Part shown: positions 23,181 to 63,967 of the stretch, piece after piece
Position numbering within the stretch: the first letter of the stretch is position 1
Layout of the letters: each line of letters begins with the position of its first letter
Assembly: GCF_003019035.1 (NCBI RefSeq)
Contig: NZ_CP027447.1
Length of the DNA: 64,000 nt
Source: Escherichia coli
GTDB taxonomy: Bacteria; Pseudomonadota; Gammaproteobacteria; Enterobacterales; Enterobacteriaceae
Direction: 5' to 3' (one strand)
Translations under genes and position numbers: made by a program
The notes under the pieces: generated by a model
Told to the model about the DNA's origin: nothing
The model's database searches: none
What the model saw: the letters and a program-made list of their open reading frames with translations, nothing else

Positions 23181-23236
23181 GCGTTGCCGGATGACGCGTC
23201 AGGCGCGTGATTGCCTGATGCGTTGTTAGCGTCTCT
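23181..23236. repeat. REP-like element between osmC and ddpF
   Basis: GCCGGATGACGCGTCAGGCGCG...GCCTGATGCG resembles REP consensus. Confidence 0.4.
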
Positions 23237-24161
23237 ACAGCGCCCGCCAGCACCGGATCTCACGTCCGTCCTCCCTTATTGCTAATGATTGCCGGACTTC
23301 ACACCCGTGGGTTGCCAGAGGGCAACGTTCACGGAAAAAACAGCCTTGTGGCAACGTGCGGTTTCCTGGTAGATCCGTTTTACGTAATGCCCATTCTTCC
23401 TCCAGCGGTTTATCAATGGCGGGGAGGGAATCCAGCAATAATCGGGTGTAGGGATGTGCCGGAGCTGTCAGCACCTGTTGCGCGTCTCCTAATTCCACAA
23501 TCTGTCCGAGATACATCACCGCCACCCGATCGCTCATATGACGTATCACCGAGACATTGTGTGAAATCAGCACATAAGTCAGCCCGCGATTTTCCTGTAG
23601 CGTTACCAGTAAATTGAGGATCTGCGCCTGCACGGAGATATCCAGCGCCGAGGTTGGTTCATCAAGCACAATCACGTCAGGCTGCGAAGAGAGTGCTCTG
23701 GCAATGGCGATACGTTGCCGCTGCCCGCCTGAGAACGCATGGGGCAAGCGGTCGAGATACTCCGGACGAATACCCACCTGCACAGCCAGCTCCTCTGCCA
23801 ACGCTCGCCGCTGTTGTTCACTACTACGCTTAGCAATCCAGAGCGGTTCCGTGATGATGCGCCACACCGGTAAGCGCGGATTAAGCGAAGAGAGCGGGTC
23901 CTGAAACACCATCTGCATAATGCGTTGTGATCCTGAACGGATGTACTGCCCGTGGCTCGGTTGCAGCATACCCATTAAAAGCTGTGCGAGGGTGCTTTTG
24001 CCGCAACCTGACTCACCGACGATCCCTAAGGTTTCACCACGACGGATCTGTAAATCAATACCATTGATGGCATGAACATGTTCCGTAGTTTTACCAAGCC
24101 AGTTTTTTCGGGCCGGGAAATTGATATGGACGTCGCGTAACGTTAATAACGTGTCAGACAC
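23235..24161 (-). CDS. ddpF: D,D-dipeptide ABC transporter ATP-binding protein
   Basis: ORF 23235..24215; probable GTG start at 24159-24161 (VSDTLLTLRDVHINF) with AGGAGG RBS, overlapping ddpD stop; Walker A GESGCGKST. Confidence 0.85.
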   Translation of the reverse strand: MSDTLLTLRDVHINFPARKNWLGKTTEHVHAINGIDLQIRRGETLGIVGESGCGKSTLAQLLMGMLQPSHGQYIRSGSQRIMQMVFQDPLSSLNPRLPVWRIITEPLWIAKRSSEQQRRALAEELAVQVGIRPEYLDRLPHAFSGGQRQRIAIARALSSQPDVIVLDEPTSALDISVQAQILNLLVTLQENRGLTYVLISHNVSVIRHMSDRVAVMYLGQIVELGDAQQVLTAPAHPYTRLLLDSLPAIDKPLEEEWALRKTDLPGNRTLPQGCFFRERCPLATHGCEVRQSLAIREDGREIRCWRAL

Positions 24162-25140
24162 TAATGACCTCCTGCTGAGGATACCAACAGGCGCAGCGGT
24201 GGTTGTTGTCACCACACGCTGTTAGCGCCGGGACGTTTTCACACTGCGCACCTGCCGCATAGCAACGATCGCGAAAAGCGCAGCCGTCAGGCAAATGGGT
24301 GAGGTTTGGTACCGTCCCTGGAATGGCGGGTAATGGCTGGCGCGGTATTCCATGTTCCGGTGCGCATTGCAGCAAACCAATGGTATACGGATGCCGGGGA
24401 TGATGGATAACGTCTGCCGTCACGCCGCTTTCAATCACGCTTCCGGCATACATCACGTAAACGCTATCGCACAGTTGCGACACCACGGCCATATCATGGC
24501 TGATGAACAGTACCGCAGTTCCACTGGCGCGGGCTTTATGTTTAAGCAGACGCAGTACCTGCAACTGTACCGTGACGTCCAGCGCCGTAGTCGGTTCGTC
24601 GGCAATAATCAATTGCGGCTCGCAGGAGAATGCCAGCGCAATCATTACCCGCTGGCGCATACCACCTGAAAGCTCAAACGGATAGCGCGACATAACTTCC
24701 ACGGCATCCGGGATTTGCATCTCTTCCAGCAGGGCAATCGCTTTAGCTCTGGCTTCCCGACGACTTATTGGTTGATGATGGCGGATCACGTCCATCATCT
24801 GAAGACCTATTCGACGTGTCGGATTGAGGGCGGTCATCGGTTCCTGAAAGATCATCGCCACTCGTGCGCCGCGCCACTGACGAAGCTGCTTTTCCCGAGC
24901 GTTAAGAACATCTTCTCCCAGCAGTGAAATATGTCCCCGATGTACGCAATAACTGCCCGTCGGTAGCAGACGCATAATCAACATTGCAGTGACTGATTTA
25001 CCCGAGCCGGATTCTCCCACCAGACCGACAATTTCACCGCGGTTGATTTTCAATGACACATTGTTGAGCGCGTGAACGTCGCCGTTAAAACCGGGGAAAC
25101 TCAAATGCAGTTGTTGAATGTCCAGAACGGGTTGGGTCAT
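24154..25140 (-). CDS. ddpD: D,D-dipeptide ABC transporter ATP-binding protein
   Basis: 328-aa ORF; Walker A GESGSGKSV, ABC signature LSGGMRQR. Confidence 0.9.
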   Translation of the reverse strand: MTQPVLDIQQLHLSFPGFNGDVHALNNVSLKINRGEIVGLVGESGSGKSVTAMLIMRLLPTGSYCVHRGHISLLGEDVLNAREKQLRQWRGARVAMIFQEPMTALNPTRRIGLQMMDVIRHHQPISRREARAKAIALLEEMQIPDAVEVMSRYPFELSGGMRQRVMIALAFSCEPQLIIADEPTTALDVTVQLQVLRLLKHKARASGTAVLFISHDMAVVSQLCDSVYVMYAGSVIESGVTADVIHHPRHPYTIGLLQCAPEHGIPRQPLPAIPGTVPNLTHLPDGCAFRDRCYAAGAQCENVPALTACGDNNHRCACWYPQQEVISV

Positions 25141-26033
25141 GACTGCTTTCCTCCTGCTTTCGGGTCAAGCAGATCGCGAATACCATCGCCAAAGAGATTA
25201 AACCCGACGGCGGTAAGCAAAATCGCTGCCCCCGGAAATGCGCAATACCACCATTGATCGAGCACATAGTTGCGACCATTCGCCACCATCGCCCCCCATT
25301 CAGCACTCGGTTGTTGAGCACCAAGGCCAATAAATCCCAACGTGGCGGCCATTAAAATCGCGCTACCGATATCCAGCGATGCCTGCACAATCAGCGGCGG
25401 CAGGGAGTTACGTAAAATATGCCAGTTGATCAGATGCCAACGCGACGCACCAAAGGTTTTCGCCGCCTGAACGAAAGTGTACTGGCGGACAACTAATGTT
25501 TGCCCCCGCGCCAGGCGCACATAAAACGGGATTCGCACGATAGCAATCGCCAGCATGGCGTTAAACAAACTCGGCCCGAGAGCGGCTGCCAGTGCCATTG
25601 TCAGCACCAGCGAAGGAATCGACAGCATAATGTCCATGATGCGCATGATGATCGCGTCTGCGCGTCCGCCAAGCACACCGGATAGACACCCGAGTAGCGA
25701 CCCCATCATACCTGCAATGGCGACCACCACTAATCCGGCGAGAATTGATTGCTGACTGCCGACCAGTACGCGGCTAAACAGATCGCGTCCCACTTCATCG
25801 GTGCCAAACCAGTGCGCTGCAGAAGGCGGCAAAAGGCGGGCGGTTAAATCAATGGCGTTGGGATCATGCGTCGCCAGCCACGGTGAAAAAATCATCATCA
25901 ATAGCATTAATACAATGATGACTGCGCCGGTCACGGTGAGCGGGCTGCCTTTCAGCATCCATACCAGTTTTGCACCGTTAAATCGCGTTTGTTTTTGTGG
26001 GCGTACGGCGGACGTTTCCTCGCTTAGCATCAT
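25137..26033 (-). CDS. ddpC: D,D-dipeptide ABC transporter permease
   Basis: 298-aa multi-pass membrane ORF, overlaps ddpD start by 4 bp. Confidence 0.9.
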   Translation of the reverse strand: MMLSEETSAVRPQKQTRFNGAKLVWMLKGSPLTVTGAVIIVLMLLMMIFSPWLATHDPNAIDLTARLLPPSAAHWFGTDEVGRDLFSRVLVGSQQSILAGLVVVAIAGMMGSLLGCLSGVLGGRADAIIMRIMDIMLSIPSLVLTMALAAALGPSLFNAMLAIAIVRIPFYVRLARGQTLVVRQYTFVQAAKTFGASRWHLINWHILRNSLPPLIVQASLDIGSAILMAATLGFIGLGAQQPSAEWGAMVANGRNYVLDQWWYCAFPGAAILLTAVGFNLFGDGIRDLLDPKAGGKQS

Positions 26034-27052
26034 TCACCACCTCCACGTCCGATACGCGGATCAATCCACAAATAGAGCAAATCCACCACCAGGTTCACCA
26101 GCACATAAGCAAACGAAACCACGACGGCAAAGCCCATCACTGCCGGGAAGTCGAGCGCCTGTATTGATGTTACTACCCATGCACCCATTCCGGGCCAGGC
26201 AAAAACGGTTTCGGTGAGCACTGCGCCATACAACAAATCGCCCAGCGCCAGTCCCAATACGGTAATCGAGGGGATCAACGCATTGGGTAGCGCATAACAT
26301 AAAACGATATACCAGCCGGGCAAGCCGCTGGCCCGGGCGGTACGAATGTAATCTTCACTCAATTGTTCCAGCATCGCTGAGCGGATCTGGCGAGCGACAA
26401 TTCCCAGGTGAACGAACGCCAGCGTTAATGCCGGTAAGATGAGATGTTGCAGCGCATTGAAGAAGACTTCACCGTTGCCTTCAAGCAGCGCATCGAGCAG
26501 ATAAAAGCCGGTAACGTGCGTTGGTGGATCCAGCCAGTCATCAAGCCTTCCGCCGCCGGGAAGAATTTGCAGATGACCATAAAACAGCACAATGACGCCC
26601 AGCCCAAGCCAGAACGCAGGTGTGGAGATTCCGGTAATGGCCATTATTCGCACCAGATGATCCAGCCAGCGATTTCGCCAGACTGCAGAGAGTATGCCCA
26701 ACGGGATGCCAATCAGGAGTGCCAGCAGCAGCGCGCAAAATGCCAGTTCCAGCGTCGCCGGGAAAAATATACGCAACTCTTCCAGCACCGGACGCCCGGT
26801 ACGAATGGATGTTCCCAGGTCACCCTGAAACAGATCGCTGACGTAGCGGTAAAACTGTACGTACAGTGGCTGGTCCAGCCCCAGTTGCTGGCGAATATTT
26901 TCCACGATAGCATCGCTGGCGCGGTCACCCGCCAGTAACCGCGCCGGATCGCCGGGGATCAGGTGCGAGATAATAAACGTAATCACGCAGACGCCCGCCA
27001 CCACGAGCACCAGCCCCCAGCAGCGTTGGCGTAAAATACTCCAGAAGGTCAC
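26030..27052 (-). CDS. ddpB: D,D-dipeptide ABC transporter permease
   Basis: 340-aa membrane ORF, overlaps ddpC start. Confidence 0.9.
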   Translation of the reverse strand: MTFWSILRQRCWGLVLVVAGVCVITFIISHLIPGDPARLLAGDRASDAIVENIRQQLGLDQPLYVQFYRYVSDLFQGDLGTSIRTGRPVLEELRIFFPATLELAFCALLLALLIGIPLGILSAVWRNRWLDHLVRIMAITGISTPAFWLGLGVIVLFYGHLQILPGGGRLDDWLDPPTHVTGFYLLDALLEGNGEVFFNALQHLILPALTLAFVHLGIVARQIRSAMLEQLSEDYIRTARASGLPGWYIVLCYALPNALIPSITVLGLALGDLLYGAVLTETVFAWPGMGAWVVTSIQALDFPAVMGFAVVVSFAYVLVNLVVDLLYLWIDPRIGRGGGE

Positions 27053-27053
27053 G

Positions 27054-28310
27054 TTATTTACTCATAGTATTGATATTGAAGACCTGTTCCAGCATGGGAT
27101 TGAACACAAAGCCTTTCACCTCTTTGTTCATCGCCAGTTGATAGTTTTTCTGGAACAGGTACACATAAGCAGCGTCATCAATGACGATTTTCTGTGCCTG
27201 CTGGTAGTCCCGGGTACGCTGCGTCTGGTCGGTGGTCGCTAGCGCATTGCGCAGTAACTTATCGACCTCACTGTTTTCATAGAACGAGCGGTTACCCGGC
27301 AGACCTTTTTTGTCGGACTCAAACCAGTAATTCATAAACATATACGGGTCGGCAAAATCCGGACTCCAGTTGCCAATCGCGATGTCGTAATCACCTTTAC
27401 CCACTCTGTCGCGCATGGTGGCGTTCGCCAGCTTTTCCAGCTTCACATTGATGCCCAGCTTGTTGAGACTGGATTGTGTCGCCAGAGCAATAGGCTCCCA
27501 GTTCGGATCATTATCAGAATAGAGAAACGTCAGGCTGGTGGGTTTGCTCGTCACTTTATCCCATTCGGCTTTGGCTTTCGTTTCGTCATGGTTGTATTGC
27601 ATTGCCGTCGCATCGTATCCCCACATGCCTTCCGGAATCGGGCCGCGCATCTGTTTTCCGTTACCACTCAGAATGCCGTTAACCATTCCCTGATAATCGG
27701 TAGACCAGGAAATGGCCCGACGCAGATCCGCCTGATTAAGTGGCGCTTTGCTGTTATTCAGATACAGATAGGTGACGCGCAGTGACGGATACTCTGCCAC
27801 ATTGACTTTGTTTTCCTGCTTCAGTGCGTTGAGTTGATCCACCGGCAGCGCATCGGCAATGTCAATGTCGCCACGGGAGAGCTGCAGGCGACGGGAAGCA
27901 CTTTCACCGATAATTTTTACCGATACCCGTTTGAAATTCGGTTTATTGCCGGGGTAATGCGGATTTGGCACCAGAACTAATTGCTGACCTTTTTGCCAGC
28001 TTTTCAGCATAAACGGTCCGGAGCCAGCGGTATTTTGCGCGAGGAAACCACGGGCATCATCCGCCGCATGCTCCTTTAAGACCGCCGGATTGATAATGGA
28101 TGCACCGTCATTCGCCAGCGTGTAGAGGAACGGTGCGAATGGCTGGCTAAGGGTAAACCTCACTATATGTTCGTCGGGAGCATCAATCTTTAAATCTTTG
28201 GGAAATGCTTCTGCTGGCCCCTGGCCGATTTTTAGTAACCGCTCAAAAGAGAGTTTTACTGCTTCGGCAGTGACAGGTGTGCCATCGGCAAATTTAGCAT
28301 TGTCCTTCAG
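27054..28310 (-). pseudogene. ddpA: ddpA periplasmic dipeptide-binding protein, 5'-truncated by prophage insertion
   Basis: Reading frame runs without stop from 27054 up to the prophage junction at 28310 (ORF track shows only 27054..28163 from an internal GTG); about 418 C-terminal residues remain, signal peptide and first ~98 codons absent. Confidence 0.85.
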
Positions 28311-28490
28311 TGTATTGATTCACTTGAAGTACGAAAAAAAACCGGGAGGACATTGGATTATTCGGGATCTGATGGGATTAGATTTGGTGGGGCTTGCAAG
28401 CCTGTAGCGCAAATTTTAGTCGTTAATCAATGAAACGCGAAAGATAGTAAAAAATTGCTTTTGTTTCATTGAAAATACGAAAAACAAAAA
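28311..28490 (+). repeat. Prophage left end (attL) with transposase-binding sites L1-L3
   Basis: Terminal TG; end-binding repeats TGATTCACTTGAAGTACGAAAA (28317-28338), TGAAACGCGAAAGATAG (28431-28447), TTGTTTCATTGAAAATACGAAAAAC (28461-28485). Confidence 0.75.
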
Positions 28491-28649
28491 CACTGCAAAT
28501 CATTTCAATAACAGCTTCAAAAAACGTTCAAAACCGATAACAACCAGGCTGTAACCAAATGACTCATATCACAAATCAGCTCATGCCGTTTAGGTATGTT
28601 ACATGTGTGATTATGTGAGGTGAAGTATGTTTTAGCTGGTTCATGGTTG

Positions 28650-29168
28650 TTATACGGCTTTTTTTACATCTTGTGGTTCTTGCGAAGGAGCTACAAGACC
28701 TTCCTGTTCATGAATACCATGCTCTGACAAAATCTCTTTGCGCTCTTCTGCTGGTAAAGTTTCTAGCATTTGGGCGAGTTGTATGCACTCACGCGATACG
28801 CCGTGCAGAGATTGGATTTGAGTCTGATCAAAGATACTTGGCATTAGTGCACTAAGTCCACCTTTACTAAGTAGCTTTAATGCCCTCTGGATTTCCTCTG
28901 GTTCTAACTCTGCAACCAAAGCCATTAACACAGAAGCTAACTTATAAGCTGACTTATCGTTATCTAATAACTGCGCCCCTCCTAATTCTGCCTGAGTGGC
29001 ATCAGGTAATGAGCTGATATGGTATTCATAAGCAACACCCTTTACTCCTTTGATCTGTCTCTTTTTCCATCCCTCATTAGTTGCTTTGCGGCTAATACTA
29101 CTTGCTGAAGACGGAAGACCAGCAACCCCTTGTAGCTCTTTAGCTGAAAACCATTCTTGTGTCATCAC
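28650..29168 (-). CDS. c: Prophage repressor c (D108-type N-terminal DNA-binding domain, Mu-like C-terminal domain)
   Basis: 172-aa ORF facing the left end; C-terminal ...[13 protein letters not shown]...[15 protein letters not shown]...[12 protein letters not shown] matches the Mu repressor family; N-terminal domain is homologous to the transposase N-terminus in this window. Confidence 0.8.
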
Positions 29169-29356
29169 AAACCTCGCTTTAAATACACGATGTATTCAAA
29201 GAAATGAAAAATATATTCACTTTAAAATCATCGAGATAGATGAATTTCAAACAAAACATTTGAATACACTATTGCATTGACAATGTATTCACACTAGCAT
29301 TACTGCATACCTTATCAGCTACCTTGCGGCGTAGCTGATGGCGTAGCTTGTGAGGA
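29169..29356. promoter_or_regulatory. Operator / early promoter / enhancer region between c and ner
   Basis: At least four copies of TGTATTCA(C) or its complement at 29191, 29212, 29261, 29284; divergent c and ner starts flank it. Confidence 0.6.
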
Positions 29357-29365
29357 TTGCATTTT

Positions 29366-29584
29366 ATGGCGATAAAGAAAAGTAAATGTGAAGACAAAAG
29401 TAGATACGACATTGTTGCTGATCTGCGCAAAAGAGGAAAAAGCCTAGCAGCTCTTGGTCGTGAGAACGGTCTCTCTATCTCTACGGTAAAAAATGCCTTG
29501 GATAAACCTTACCCTCGGGGGGAAAGAATCATTGCCGATGCATTGGGAGTTGAGCCACGAGACATCTGGCCTTCGAGGTATTGA
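29366..29584 (+). CDS. ner: Ner-family DNA-binding early regulator
   Basis: ORF 29357..29584; likely ATG 29366 with GAGGA RBS; [72 protein letters not shown] (Ner/Nlp family). Confidence 0.8.
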
Positions 29585-29586
29585 AA

Positions 29587-31587
29587 ATGCAACCACAATG
29601 TAATGATTGGTTTTCTGCAAAGAAATTAGAAGGGCTGATAGGTCTTCCAAAATCCTCTAGCGCGATCTCTCGTAAAGCAAGGTTAGAACAGTGGGTGTTT
29701 CGACAGATACACGGGGTAAGAGGAGTAGCCTATGAGTTTCATATCTCATCTTTACCAAAGGAAACGCAAGCTGCGTTGTTGCTTAGACAAGGAGAGATCG
29801 AAACAAGCCAGGGCCGTTTTGAAATCGCCCGCCCCACGCTGGAAGCCCATGATTATGATCGTGAGGCACTGTGGAGCAAATGGGATAACGCCAGCGATTC
29901 CCAGCGCAGACTTGCTGAAAAATGGTTGCCTGCGGTTCAGGCCGCAGACGAAATGCTGAACCAGGGGATTTCAACAAAAACGGCTTTTGCGACCGTTGCA
30001 GGGCATTACCAGGTCAGCGCATCCACTTTGCGGGACAAGTATTACCAGGTACAGAAGTTTGCGAAGCCTGACTGGGCGGCTGCGCTTGTTGATGGACGTG
30101 GTGCATCCCGTCGCAACGTTCACAAAAGTGAATTTGACGAGGATGCCTGGCAGTTTCTGATTGCAGATTATCTGCGACCGGAAAAGCCCGCCTTCCGCAA
30201 ATGTTATGAGCGTCTGGAACTGGCAGCCCGCGAGCATGGCTGGAGTATTCCCTCCCGTGCCACGGCCTTTCGCCGGATTCAGCAACTGGACGAGGCAATG
30301 GTTGTTGCCTGTCGTGAAGGTGAACATGCACTGATGCATCTGATACCGGCACAGCAGCGAACTGTGGAACACCTGGACGCCATGCAGTGGATCAACGGCG
30401 ACGGTTATCTGCATAACGTCTTTGTACGCTGGTTTAACGGTGATGTGATCCGCCCGAAAACATGGTTCTGGCAGGATGTGAAAACCCGAAAAATTCTGGG
30501 CTGGCGCTGCGATGTGAGCGAGAACATTGATTCAATTCGCCTCTCGTTCATGGATGTTGTGACTCGCTACGGTATCCCGGAGGATTTTCACATCACCATT
30601 GATAACACCCGTGGTGCTGCGAATAAATGGCTGACGGGAGGCGCGCCCAATCGCTACCGCTTTAAGGTAAAAGAGGACGATCCAAAAGGACTGTTTTTAC
30701 TGATGGGGGCGAAAATGCACTGGACAAGCGTTGTTGCCGGTAAAGGCTGGGGCCAGGCAAAACCTGTTGAACGTGCTTTCGGTGTTGGTGGGCTTGAGGA
30801 ATACGTTGATAAGCATCCGGCACTGGCTGGCGCATATACGGGGCCTAATCCGCAGGCAAAACCTGATAACTATGGCGACCGCGCTGTTGATGCAGAGCTG
30901 TTTCTGAAAACCCTTGCCGAAGGTGTGGCGATGTTCAATGCCAGAACAGGCCGTGAAACAGAAATGTGCGGAGGCAAACTTTCGTTTGATGACGTTTTTG
31001 AGCGTGAATACGCCAGAACGATTGTGCGTAAGCCTACCGAAGAGCAAAAACGGATGCTGTTACTGCCTGCCGAGGCGGTGAACGTTTCACGTAAAGGCGA
31101 GTTCGCGCTTAAAGTTGGCGGCTCCCTTAAAGGTGTGAAAAACGTTTATTACAACATGGCGTTAATGAATGCCGGAGTGAAAAAAGTTGTGGTCAGATTT
31201 GATCCACAGCAGTTACACAGCACGGTTTATTGCTACACCCTGGACGGTCGGTTTATCTGTGAAGCGGAATGTCTGGCACCTGTTGCGTTTAATGATGCTG
31301 CGGCAGGCCGTGAATATCGCCGCCGCCAGAAACAACTGAAATCTGCGACGAAAGCAGCAATTAAGGCACAGAAACAAATGGATGCACTGGAAGTGGCAGA
31401 GCTGCTGCCGCAGATAGCCGAACCTGAAGCACCAGAATCACGAATTGTCGGCATTTTCCGGCCTTCCGGTAATACGGAACGGGTGAAGAATCAGGAGCGT
31501 GATGATGAATACGAAACTGAGCGTGATGAATATCTGAATCATTCGCTGGATATTCTGGAACAGAACAGACGTAAAAAAGCCATTTAA
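29587..31587 (+). CDS. A: Transposase A (DDE transposase/integrase of Mu family)
   Basis: ORF 29581..31587; likely ATG 29587; from about residue 60 onward matches Mu A as I recall it ([10 protein letters not shown]...[28 protein letters not shown]...), N-terminal ~55 aa differ. Confidence 0.9.
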
Positions 31588-35234: not shown

Positions 35235-35758
35235 TGTTTTTTAAAACGTCAAATCCCGCAGCACTGCTGGCGTGGGACCAGTTTATGGCGGACTGTCTGA
35301 AACTACGCGAAGAAGCCCGCCATCTTGATAAGGTTCTGGGTTGTGGTTGCCGGTCAGTATTCAGCACAGGTATTGGTGGGCGTTATTTTCATGGTGTGAA
35401 CTTTCCGGGGAATGAGCGCCCTTTCTCGCGGGAGCTGTGGACCGTACAACGGCCCGCATCAGGTAACAGTTGCAGGCCTAGAACTTCGCGGATACCTGTT
35501 CATCTCAGGGAGCAGGCAAAAGAGCTGGCGAAAATATGGCAGGAGAATATTCCGGTCACTTATGCCCGCACAGATGCTCTTTTACCCGCACTGGGACTGG
35601 ATTTCAGCGCAACAATATTCGGGCCGCTCCGGTGGTTCCGTGTTGGTGATGTGATTTACGTCATGACGGGGATGACACCCGCACAGGGCTGCATGACGGA
35701 AATCCTGTCCGATGAATTCATGAAGGCAAAGATTGCGTTAAAGGGGGCCGCTAAATGA
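35234..35758 (+). CDS. Early-region hypothetical protein
   Basis: ORF 35195..35758; likely ATG 35234 (MFFKTSNPAALLAWDQF) with AGGAGG RBS at 35221, overlapping upstream stop. Confidence 0.5.
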   Translation: MFFKTSNPAALLAWDQFMADCLKLREEARHLDKVLGCGCRSVFSTGIGGRYFHGVNFPGNERPFSRELWTVQRPASGNSCRPRTSRIPVHLREQAKELAKIWQENIPVTYARTDALLPALGLDFSATIFGPLRWFRVGDVIYVMTGMTPAQGCMTEILSDEFMKAKIALKGAAK

Positions 35759-36423
35759 AAGAACGTGGCGTTGCTTTTAATGACGATATGGTCAGGGCAA
35801 TTCTCGAAGGAAGAAAGACGCAAACACGCCGCCCGGTAAAAAATGTCGGACACGATAACTGTCTGGTTATCCATCGTAACGGTGTTTATACCCACGTTAT
35901 GGATGCACCTGAGCATGGTTTATGCCCGTTCGGTAACGTTGGTGATCGCATCTGGGTCCGTGAAGCGTGGGCAATATTAGGCAATGAGGATGGTTGCAGT
36001 GTGGACTGGAACGGCAACCTTTGTCATGGCGATGAGAAGAAGGCAGCAAGGATTTATCGGGCAAGTTGTGAACAAAAGCCTGGTGATTACGGTCTGTGGT
36101 CAATACCTGATGATGCTGACTGGAAACCTCGCACTGTGAATGAAAAGTTTGATGGCAGGTGGTGCCCATCTATCCACATGCCGCGCTGGGCGTCGCGCAT
36201 TCTGTTGGGAATAACCGACGTGCGTGTGGAACGGCTGCATGATATTAGCGAGGCAGATGCGAAAGCGGAAGGCGCATTTCCGGCGACGTACAAAATTACG
36301 CCACCGGAAGCTGTTTATCGCGTTGGTTTTGGTGATATCTGGCGCGGTATTTATGGGCAAGATAACTGGCTGTCTAATCCGTGGGTATGGGTAATTGAGT
36401 TTAAGCGTATTCAGGAAGCATAA
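35755..36423 (+). CDS. Conserved prophage protein (ASCH/PUA-like N-terminal motif suspected)
   Basis: 222-aa ORF with N-terminal MVRAILEGRKTQTRRP and GDRIWVREAW motifs, recurrent in prophage proteins. Confidence 0.5.
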   Translation: MKERGVAFNDDMVRAILEGRKTQTRRPVKNVGHDNCLVIHRNGVYTHVMDAPEHGLCPFGNVGDRIWVREAWAILGNEDGCSVDWNGNLCHGDEKKAARIYRASCEQKPGDYGLWSIPDDADWKPRTVNEKFDGRWCPSIHMPRWASRILLGITDVRVERLHDISEADAKAEGAFPATYKITPPEAVYRVGFGDIWRGIYGQDNWLSNPWVWVIEFKRIQEA

Positions 36424-36425
36424 CT

Positions 36426-36767
36426 ATGAGCAAATCACTTAATGCACGTTGTATTCGCCGTTGGGAAGTCAGATTTAAGCCTGTTTGTGATTCAAAAGTT
36501 AGCCCTCACATGCGTAAAAGCTTTTTGCGTGGGGTGCGTGAATTAGGGCTTATTACGGCTGAAAACATGGTTGAAAGCATGGCTGAGAAAAACGCCAGGT
36601 TTGATTACGACGGCAAGGACACAGGCTGGTCACCGGAGTTTTCTAACTGGTATGCAACATGCCGAGAAAAGTATTGTAAAGAGGCCCGCGACTATCTGGA
36701 TGAAGAAGTCACAAACGATGAGATCGATGAAGAAATCAGAACTGAGCTAGAGTATTGGAATGACTAA
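36426..36767 (+). CDS. Early-region hypothetical protein with acidic C-terminal tail
   Basis: 113-aa ORF ending DYLDEEVTNDEIDEEIRTELEYWND. Confidence 0.45.
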   Translation: MSKSLNARCIRRWEVRFKPVCDSKVSPHMRKSFLRGVRELGLITAENMVESMAEKNARFDYDGKDTGWSPEFSNWYATCREKYCKEARDYLDEEVTNDEIDEEIRTELEYWND

Positions 36768-59693: not shown

Positions 59694-61048
59694 TGTTTTA
59701 TATTGATAACGACAGCGGCGTAACCGTCATGCCGCCCGTATCCGCCCAGCGTAGTGCTATCGTTCGCTGGTTTTCAGAAGGTGACGGGAATAATGTTATC
59801 ACATGGCCCGGCATGGACTGGTTTAATATTGTTCAGGCGGAGTTATTAAACACGCTGGAAGAAGCTGGTATTCAACCGGATAAAACAAAATTAAACCAGC
59901 TTGCACTGTCCATTAAAGCCATTATGAGCAATAACGCGCTGCTGATAAAAAATAACCTCAGCGAAATTAAAACTGCCGGGGCATCAGCACAGCGTACAGC
60001 ACGTGAAAATCTGGATATCTATGATGCCAGCCTGAACAAAAAAGGACTCGTTCAGCTAACCAGTGCCACTGACAGCCCCAGTGAAACGCTGGCAGCCACC
60101 GCAAAAGCGGTGAAAATTGCGATGGATAATGCCAATGCCCGTCTGGCAAAAGACCGGAACGGAGCAGATATTCCCAATAAGCCGCTGTTTATCCAAAACC
60201 TCGGTTTACAGGAAACGGTAAACAAGGCTGGTAACGCTGTTCAGCGTTCTGGCGATACAATGACCGGAAAACTGAATCTACCACAGACATCTGCATTCGG
60301 CGTTAATACCGATAATGCACTGGGTGGTAATTCCATTACTCTCGGAGATAACGACACCGGTATTAAACAGGGCGGCGATGGTGTCCTTTTATTCTATTTA
60401 AATGGACAACTGATATTTGGGCTTCAACCCACATCCGCTGATTTTTATAAGCGAGTTGCCTACATTCATCAGGGAGTAGCTCCAGATGGGAGTGGCGCAT
60501 TTGCAGACCAGTTAAATAATGCCACCGCGCCTTTTGTTCAGACGCAGTTTGCCTGGAATCCCACTCCTGGCGGTCATTACGTACCGATAGCTAAGGGCTT
60601 GTCCATTCGCAATGGACAGGGGTATCCAGGTGCGGTCAGCTTTGGTTATTTACTAACTGAACAAATGGGATTTCCCATACCATGCATTCATATGCGTGGA
60701 GATTACGGAGCTGATGCTTTGTGGCAGTTTAACCCGAACGATAAATCTTTTATTTCACCGGGGGCTCTTGTTGCGGGTGGCATCCGTTATAACACCGATG
60801 GAAATATATTTGGCGGGTGTTGGGGTTCAAATTTAGCTGATTATCTCAATAGCACATATGTAAGAGACATTCGACTTGGTAGCGCAGAATCAATATCAGC
60901 ATGGCGAGGCCCTGGTTACTGGGATACTTCTGGATATGTTCTGACCGCAGCCGGAAACAGCAACACCGATGAATTTATTGATACATTAACCAGAAGGCCT
61001 ATTCAGAAGTTGATTGGTGGGACATATTATAACGTTGTGAGTATTTGA
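59693..61048 (+). CDS. S: Tail fibre protein S (constant part 59693-60188 fused to the variable part currently in expressed orientation)
   Basis: 451-aa ORF crossing the left inverted repeat at 60189; C-terminus ...[10 protein letters not shown]. Confidence 0.8.
60189..60227. repeat. Left inverted repeat of G segment (contains gix recombination site)
   Basis: TTATCCAAAACCTCGGTTTACAGGAAACGGTAAACAAGG; reverse complement of 63010-63048 with 2 mismatches. Confidence 0.85.
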
Positions 61049-62140: not shown

Positions 62141-63009
62141 TTAAACGCTCGCTACATTATACCAGGTGCCATTTATATACTTTTGAACGGGTCTGTAATA
62201 AACGCCCGCTATATTATCGGCAGAGTTGGACCCTGTATCCTGAACATTAATACCAGACAATACATGACCTGACGGGCACTTGAAATTCCATGTTTGCCAG
62301 TTGTTCACACCATGATATTGCTGTGAACCAAGACGAACATCTTTTACGTATCGGGAATCAAAGTTACTCCAGTTACTTGGTTGTATGTGACCGTTTACAG
62401 CAAATATCACCGAATTATCTGTATTTCGCTGACTATAGAAATGCCAGCCTGAATCATCACCAAGCTCTGCAACAGTTGGTCTTGATGAAGTGCCCCATAA
62501 ATTAAAACCTACGTTTTTCGTGGAGTTGTTGGAGCTGGATAGCGTGAATTTTTTACCATCCCCGGCCTGAACGTTTTTAAAAGCAATAGCAACTCCATTC
62601 TGAAAGCGGAATACTCGCTGACTATTAGCGTAAACATCCAGAATACCGTCTCCATTCTGTTTAAATCCGGTATCATTATCACCAAGAACAATAGAGCTAC
62701 CACCTAACGCATTCGTCGTACCAACTCCAAGGCTGCCATTAATGACGGCATTAACAAGAATATTTAGTGCATCCCATTTCAGCGTCATCAGGTCTTTTGT
62801 TGTGGTGCTTTGTTTGCTTCTCCATTTGAAATATTCATTGCCGTTGTCGCCTGTTTCAAACCACATGTATGAATCAGTGTCACCATCGGCATCATTTTTA
62901 AATCCAATCTTCGCCCAGTCAGTATTTCGAATCCAGGCAAGGATTGAGTCATTTTCAAAAGTAAGCCCACCGGACAAAGTATCGCCATTTTTTTGCACGG
63001 CATTACCAG
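62141..63009 (-). CDS. Alternative tail-fibre variable region S' (no own start; in frame with S constant part after G inversion)
   Basis: Open minus-strand frame from the right inverted repeat to 62141; hand translation from the repeat gives ETVNRAGNAVQKNGDTLSGG... in the same phase as S; C-terminus ...NGTWYNVASV similar to S. Confidence 0.75.
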
Positions 63010-63048
63010 CCCTGTTTACCGTTTCCTGTAAACCGAGGTTTTAGATAA
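63010..63048. repeat. Right inverted repeat of G segment (contains gix site)
   Basis: CCCTGTTTACCGTTTCCTGTAAACCGAGGTTTTAGATAA. Confidence 0.85.
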
Positions 63049-63102: not shown

Positions 63103-63684
63103 GTGCTGATTGGCTATGTAAGGGTATCAACAAATGACCAGAATACAGACCTGCAACGAAACGCTCTTGTTTGTGCAGGATGTGAACAAATATTTGAAGA
63201 TAAATTAAGCGGAACAAGGACAGACAGACCTGGATTAAAGCGCGCTTTAAAGCGTCTTCAAAAAGGTGACACACTGGTTGTCTGGAAACTGGATCGCCTC
63301 GGGCGAAGCATGAAACATCTGATTTCTCTCGTCGGAGAACTACGGGAGCGAGGGATTAATTTTCGCAGCCTTACTGACAGTATTGATACGTCATCCCCAA
63401 TGGGGCGTTTTTTCTTCCACGTTATGGGTGCCCTGGCTGAAATGGAACGAGAACTAATCATCGAGCGAACGATGGCTGGACTTGCTGCCGCCAGAAATAA
63501 AGGCCGTATTGGTGGGCGACCACCTAAACTAACCAAAGCGGAATGGGAGCAGGCCGGGCGTTTATTAGCACAAGGAATCCCCCGCAAGCAGGTTGCATTG
63601 ATCTACGATGTGGCCCTGTCAACTCTGTATAAAAAACACCCCGCGAAACGAGCGCATATAGAAAACGACGATCGAATCAATTAA
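63103..63684 (+). CDS. gin: Gin serine DNA invertase
   Basis: ORF 63085..63684; likely GTG start 63103 (MLIGYVRVSTNDQNTDLQRNAL...); resolvase/invertase catalytic Ser in VRVSTNDQ and C-terminal HTH. Confidence 0.9.
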   Translation: MLIGYVRVSTNDQNTDLQRNALVCAGCEQIFEDKLSGTRTDRPGLKRALKRLQKGDTLVVWKLDRLGRSMKHLISLVGELRERGINFRSLTDSIDTSSPMGRFFFHVMGALAEMERELIIERTMAGLAAARNKGRIGGRPPKLTKAEWEQAGRLLAQGIPRKQVALIYDVALSTLYKKHPAKRAHIENDDRIN

Positions 63685-63778: not shown

Positions 63779-63967
63779 ATGAAATCAATTCGCTGTAAAA
63801 ACTGCAACAAACTGTTATTTAAGGCGGATTCCTTTGATCACATTGAAATCAGGTGTCCGCGTTGCAAACGTCACATCATAATGCTGAATGCCTGCGAGCA
63901 TCCCACGGAGAAACATTGTGGGAAAAGAGAAAAAATCACGCATTCTGACGAAACCGTGCGTTATTGA
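63779..63967 (+). CDS. com: Com zinc-finger translational activator of mom
   Basis: 62-aa [41 protein letters not shown]... with C4 zinc finger; GGAGG RBS. Confidence 0.85.

Follow-up and report, generated by a model that had tools for sequence, protein, structure and literature searches.

The reading frame of ddpA, which encodes the periplasmic D,D-dipeptide-binding protein of the ddpXABCDF dipeptide-uptake operon, stops abruptly at position 28310 of the Escherichia coli DNA analyzed here (assembly GCF_003019035.1, contig NZ_CP027447.1; this stretch of 64,000 nucleotides is referred to below as the window), which raises the question of what interrupted the gene and what this means for the operon. 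An initial inspection of the letters alone, the sequence-only reading, had proposed that a transposable prophage is inserted in the gene. The host side of the interruption was compared with the closest complete genome, that of E. coli SCU-301, isolated from a human rectal swab. The first 25 kb of the window showed 100.0% identity to SCU-301, and the left host flank, in which osmC, ddpF, ddpD, ddpC, ddpB and ddpA are annotated, contained 0 mismatches in 6,500 bases. In SCU-301, the operon is arranged on one strand in the order ddpF-ddpD-ddpC-ddpB-ddpA-ddpX, followed by dosP and dosC, so that both sequence identity and synteny with annotated ddpA and the adjacent genes identify the locus as ddpXABCDF. 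As had been claimed, the frame on the minus strand is continuous up to the junction, with 418 codons plus a stop codon and no internal stops; its translation begins with LKDNAKF. The fragment corresponds to residues 99-516 of the 516-aa DdpA of SCU-301, shows 100% identity to the intact ddpA, and is devoid of the start codon, the signal peptide and codons 1-98, which makes the earlier figure of about 98 absent codons exactly 98. The intact gene of SCU-301 reads TTGTCCTTCAG followed by GGTGAACG, whereas the window reads TTGTCCTTCAG followed by TGTATTGATTCAC; host homology thus stops precisely at 28310. The ddpA site of SCU-301 is empty, and this genome contains neither a Mu-like end nor a copy of the phage.

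The sequence beyond the junction is a Mu-type left end that starts where the sequence-only reading had placed it, at 28311, since position 1 of phage Mu aligns to this base with 4 differences in the first 250 bases. The 27-nt terminus occurred a single time in the window and in none of 100 shuffled sequences, and attL matches the region of Mu that carries the transposase-binding sites L1-L3. The five bases that precede it, TTCAG, had been named as the expected target duplication; they are present once in the empty, intact site and fit the pattern N-Y-S-R-N. A variation was noted in the run of A residues that follows the terminal transposase-binding site (28334-28341), which contains 8 A compared with 7 in Mu, PhiR68_1 and ten other Mu-like prophages. 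The run of 8 A was found in 10 of 10 independent insertions sharing this exact MuA, which indicates that the variant is compatible with transposition.

No Mu right end is present in the window, which ends at 64000, 1,407 bases short of it. To reach the right junction, exact protein sequences from the window were looked up in public assemblies. The search with the tail-fibre protein S retrieved ten places, among them a locus in assembly GCA_020302045.1 (L008) that is grouped with four similar places and matches the window at all but 1 of the 14,308 bases in which they overlap. In this assembly, ddpX, dosP and dosC come after the prophage, all on the minus strand. Its right junction reads CGCCGCTTCA, TTCAG and GGTGAACG, succeeded by the 5' part of ddpA, ddpX, dosP and dosC; in a longer reading, GTTTTTCGTGCGCCGCTTCA is followed by TTCAG and by GGTGAACGTCCACTC on the ddpA 5' side. 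In window-equivalent coordinates, TTCAGGGTGAACGTCCACTC is the sequence expected directly after GTTTTTCGTGCGCCGCTTCA at approximately 65,407, ahead of the 5' part of ddpA and ddpX. The right end differs from that of Mu at 2 of the last 125 bases and terminates with CA. The element is thus bounded by TG...CA termini with Mu-type transposase-binding end sequences and by a 5-bp duplication on both sides, the left end being read in the window and the right end in L008. When the 3' part of ddpA from the window is joined to the 5' part from L008 and one TTCAG is removed, a ddpA gene of 1,551 bp results that shows 0 mismatches with SCU-301, and the right host flank contains 1 mismatch with SCU-301 in 5,636 bases. 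The check proposed by the sequence-only reading, namely, a search beyond the window for the right terminus, TTCAG, the ddpA 5' part and ddpX on the minus strand, was therefore successful in near-identical assemblies, and the second copy of TTCAG is read in these siblings rather than in the window. Its estimate of the distance to the right end, some 36.7 kb (approximately position 65,028), has to be corrected, since the composite of window and L008 gives a prophage of 37,097 bp that ends at 65,407. At position 60763, the window carries a synonymous G, the third position of a GGG codon in S, where ten related loci have a T; this private base indicates that the window does not derive from the L008 assembly itself.

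These sibling assemblies also bear on two explanations in which the junction would not reflect a simple insertion. In the first, reads from ddpA would have been joined during assembly to a Mu-like prophage located elsewhere, as may be suspected of repeated mobile elements, which are often misassembled, and of a junction that is found in 0 of 5,426 complete RefSeq E. coli genomes. However, the search with the lineage-specific MuA protein retrieved the left junction in an independent assembly, GCA_020350545.1 (L028, grouped with three similar places), which is identical to the window at 22,001 of 22,001 bases across the junction (8,724 host and 13,277 prophage bases), and the matching right junction is present in L008 (grouped with four similar places). 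Complementary ddpA halves and a 5-bp duplication in independent assemblies are not expected of a chimera, and we rejected this explanation as having a negligible probability. In the second, the insertion would have been accompanied by a deletion or inversion, so that the other half of ddpA would not be found at the right end. Replicative transposition of Mu generates adjacent deletions and inversions, and the right end of the prophage in the window's own genome falls outside the window. Yet the siblings that share the junction show a precise 5-bp duplication and an unbroken ddpA-ddpX-dosP-dosC order, and an independent origin of an identical insertion point and orientation is very unlikely. 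A rearrangement is therefore regarded as highly improbable. The features of the locus, as a simple insertion, are listed in Table 1.

Table 1. Features of the ddp locus and the prophage inserted in it (window coordinates)
Feature	Position	Strand	Basis
ddpF	23235-24161	-	SCU-301 annotation mapped; intact
ddpD	24154-25140	-	SCU-301 annotation mapped; intact
ddpC	25137-26033	-	SCU-301 annotation mapped; intact
ddpB	26030-27052	-	SCU-301 annotation mapped; intact
ddpA 3' part, codons 99-516 and stop	27054-28310	-	Translation and comparison with SCU-301
TTCAG, left copy of the 5-bp target-site duplication	28306-28310		Second copy read in L008
Mu-type left end (attL)	28311-28500	+	Aligned to Mu and PhiR68_1; begins with terminal TG
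c, repressor, 171 aa	28650-29165	-	phrog_7148 transcriptional repressor, E = 1.6e-48; 95.9% to PhiR68_1 repressor
ner, early-transcription regulator, 72 aa	29366-29584	+	phrog_769, E = 1.4e-29; 98.6% to PhiR68_1 Ner
A, MuA DDE transposase, 666 aa	29587-31587	+	phrog_310 transposase, E = 1.3e-196
B, MuB AAA+ target-capture ATPase, 312 aa	31626-32564	+	phrog_296 DNA transposition protein, E = 3.9e-117; Pfam AAA_22, Phage-MuB_C
Early accessory (kil, gam, gemA, mor), C, lysis, head, tail and baseplate genes	32580-59690	+	tblastn with PhiR68_1 proteins; all full-length
Tail-fibre genes S, U (+) and U', S' (-), with invertible G segment	59693-63048		Inverted repeats and PhiR68_1 protein matches
gin, invertase	63103-63684	+	phrog_125 DNA invertase
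com	63779-63967	+	Protein matches
mom, start only	from 63918, cut at window end 64000	+	Protein matches

From 28311 to 64000, the window consists of one collinear Mu-family prophage that comprises c, ner, A, B, the early region, the lysis, head and tail genes, the G segment, gin, com and mom, with the end of the window corresponding to Mu position 35,989, inside mom. The proposal of a transposable prophage is thus borne out by a full Mu-family gene set. According to the PHROG and Pfam assignments, MuA and MuB are located beside a c/ner immunity module at the left end, and the Pfam domains on record for the identical MuA are HTH_Tnp_Mu_1, HTH_Tnp_Mu_2, DDE_2 and Mu-transpos_C. The block from the early accessory to the baseplate genes is approximately 98% identical to and collinear with Mu, with Pfam assignments from identical neighbours agreeing as support. 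The gene order is that of Mu, including a G segment with gin and com-mom at the right end; the G segment is flanked by 79-nt inverted repeats (60189-60267 and 62970-63048), and its orientation is the one that expresses S and U.

Several further observations were made on individual genes. The c repressor and the N terminus of MuA match the same PHROG families (phrog_7148 and phrog_13142), which is consistent with related N-terminal domains. Two early ORFs at 35755-36764, of 222 aa (phrog_874) and 113 aa (phrog_6675), are located in place of gp13-15 of Mu, occur also in PhiR68_1, and had no match in PADLOC. Another 113-aa ORF, with a signal-peptide-like N terminus, lies between mom and the right end in L008 (15072-15413), some 1.1 kb past the end of the window; it matched no family in PHROG or PADLOC, had no Pfam match on record, and may be a small accessory gene. 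The PADLOC and PHROG scans of the accessory ORFs thus provided no functional lead.

The closest deposited phage is PhiR68_1 (PV340575.1), which is collinear with the prophage and shows 98.2% nucleotide identity over prophage positions 1-31,957. It is of the same immunity type, with a MuA amino acid identity of 99.2% in addition to the high identities of the repressor and Ner (Table 1). Full-length, stop-free counterparts were found for 50 of its 53 annotated proteins, the exceptions being S, S' and an accessory ORF at the right end. Divergence (52-79% amino acid identity or partial matches) affects U, U', S' and the C-terminal part of S, and PhiR68_1 carries at its right end a D108-specific ORF that is absent here and replaced by the unrelated 113-aa signal-peptide ORF. 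These comparisons are relevant to the view that the element is a defective, immobile remnant. Defective relatives are indeed known, including a Mu-like prophage in which a large internal deletion joins an early gene to a baseplate gene (L025, 10291-11074) and another in which the transposase gene is split in two (L018, 6767-8536). In the present prophage, however, the two ends are Mu-like, each of the 50 comparable genes is full-length and stop-free, the length equals that of an independent copy, and the occurrence of the same phage type at many sites with few SNPs implies that it has moved recently. A remnant is consequently an unlikely reading, though the least improbable of the alternatives considered, and the prophage is complete and apparently intact and functional, as judged from its sequence; we infer that it is inducible.

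The sequence-only reading had implied canonical Mu, and in this point it was contradicted. Mu (NC_000929.1) and the prophage have the same gene order, both possess a G segment with gin, com and mom, and both generate 5-bp duplications at NYSRN-type sites. The identity is approximately 98% from gene C to the constant part of S, and 95-98% in the shared blocks overall. However, prophage positions 460-1438 (28770-29748), which cover c, ner and the N-terminal DNA-binding domain of A, had no nucleotide match to either Mu or D108. Furthermore, gp13-15 of Mu are replaced, the variable parts of the G segment are only approximately 72% identical, and the prophage measures 37,097 bp versus 36,717 bp in Mu and contains one additional A in the run after L1. 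D108 and SfMu, Mu-like phages of E. coli and Shigella of which the latter is described as a natural prophage (PMC4406740), belong to the same family and share the layout as well as 96-98% identity from within gene A onward, whereas the first 1,476 bases of the prophage, containing the left end and the immunity region, are unmatched in them and the tail-fibre and right-end accessory genes differ. Neither a Mu-type repressor/operator region nor near-identity to Mu across the genome was thus found. By every sequence criterion tested, namely, the termini, the target duplication, the transposition and immunity module, the gene order and the choice of insertion sites, the element belongs to the Mu family (genus Muvirus) and is not canonical Mu but a natural relative with approximately 98% identity and a different immunity region. 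The immunity type of c is the one of PhiR68_1, unlike that of Mu or D108, and the divergence of the C-terminal part of S, U, U' and S' from both Mu and PhiR68_1 suggests a different receptor range.

The same data argue against a laboratory origin, that is, a Mu lysogen or carry-over of Mu from an RP4::Mu donor. Such an origin would be in keeping with the near-identity of the termini to those of Mu and with the common gene order, but not with shared blocks that are merely some 95-98% identical, an unmatched stretch at positions 460-1438 and weakly matching tail-fibre tips. In addition, the closest match is PhiR68_1, the identical MuA was found at 10 different sites in the 10 places inspected, and the host flank is 100% identical to that of a human rectal-swab isolate, SCU-301. 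Based on the sequence divergence and the different immunity region, laboratory Mu was dismissed with near certainty.

MuA attacks its target with a 5-bp stagger and prefers CYSRG/NYSRN sites, a preference that belongs to MuA itself (PMC7350765), and the distribution of related prophages in public assemblies agrees with this mode of insertion. The identical MuA is indexed in 173 public-assembly blocks, and each of the 10 inspected places is a different host site. A left terminus identical to that of the window adjoins 20 different, unrelated host sequences in other assemblies, and 18 of these 20 independent left-flank pentamers fit NYSRN (1/8 expected; binomial p ~8e-15). The element is thus found at many unrelated sites with a degenerate N-Y-S-R-N preference and no att specificity. 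An independent copy that could be read within one contig (L032 and L014) has CTGGA on both sides and likewise measures 37,097 bp. A search with an 89-aa early protein returned 3,915 blocks and was too unspecific; it retrieved only other insertion sites, which were useful as independent junctions. A further Mu-like prophage was observed inside a lambdoid prophage (L011, 15703-21356).

Taken together, these data indicate, with a probability of roughly 0.95, that a Mu-family phage in ddpA, placed there by a simple MuA-type insertion with a 5-bp duplication, is the best explanation of the locus. According to this interpretation, a temperate phage of 37,097 bp would have been integrated in codon 99 of ddpA by MuA-catalysed transposition. 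MuA would have nicked the TG...CA termini of the phage, the freed 3' ends would have been joined to the target at two phosphodiesters separated by 5 bp, and TTCAG would have become duplicated when the gaps were repaired, with host DNA being neither lost nor rearranged. Since the site is empty in the closest complete genome, which also lacks the phage, the insertion most likely occurred at lysogenisation after infection, and it is shared by inheritance among a small clonal set of assemblies in the public record.

A 1-kb query spanning the junction was matched over its whole length in 0 of the 5,426 complete E. coli genomes, whereas its first half, consisting of ddpA alone, was matched in 4,282 of them. 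A Mu-like left end was present in 43 of the 5,426 genomes, 14 of which have the immunity region of this prophage, and was located in ddpA in none. Natural Mu-like prophages are hence uncommon in E. coli, but not rare. No report of a Mu-type insertion in ddpA was found in the literature.

Another null allele of ddpA was encountered when a truncated DdpA of 369 aa was looked up as a route to the Mu insertion; this search did not reach the insertion but led to a widespread 46-bp frameshifting deletion. The deletion is located between GGAC repeats at nucleotides 161-206 of ddpA, outside the fragment present in the window, and splits the gene into calls of 83 aa and 369 aa. It was read at L002 (9606-11110) and also at L003, L004 and L006. 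The 369-aa C-terminal product is indexed in 401 blocks, and Pfam SBP_bac_5 is recorded on it. Considering this widespread allele besides the phage insertion, it seems that the species has lost ddpA on more than one occasion.

As to the consequences for the operon, ddpA would be split into a 5' stub, with a predicted product of 99 DdpA residues followed by 13 residues from the phage end, and a promoterless 3' fragment without a signal peptide. The DdpA binding protein is destroyed whatever the RNA level. Transcription of ddpXABCDF is driven from the ddpX promoter (PMC8743547), and ddpBCDF would now lie 37 kb from this promoter, behind a repressed prophage, so that D-Ala-D-Ala uptake should be lost and ddpX should stay expressed. 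The sequence-only reading had stated that ddpBCDF is cut off from its promoter. The separation, by 37 kb, stands; the silencing of these genes is what we infer from it. The c gene points toward ddpA'BCDF, and a simple scan of the minus strand between c and the host junction (28311-28650) revealed no terminator-like hairpin. The same scan detected no sigma-70-like promoter around the junction and neither supports nor excludes read-through. A c transcript may therefore run from the left end into ddpA'BCDF; since c faces these genes without a terminator-like site, some read-through is conceivable and the silencing of ddpBCDF may be incomplete. We consider it doubtful, in one joint assessment, that ddpA is recurrently lost in E. 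coli and/or that the orphaned permease genes are transcribed from the prophage maintenance promoter. If the recurrent loss were true, it would suggest that selection on D-Ala-D-Ala uptake is relaxed or negative.

The insertion itself is an ordinary and well-understood event, with little significance beyond annotation. Annotations of this lineage should treat ddpA as a pseudogene disrupted by a phage and should mark the ddp transporter as probably inactive. The locus provides a clean natural Mu-type insertion, whose two junctions, empty site and 5-bp duplication can all be recovered from public data, and with this prophage the small set of sequenced Mu relatives from E. coli gains another mosaic.
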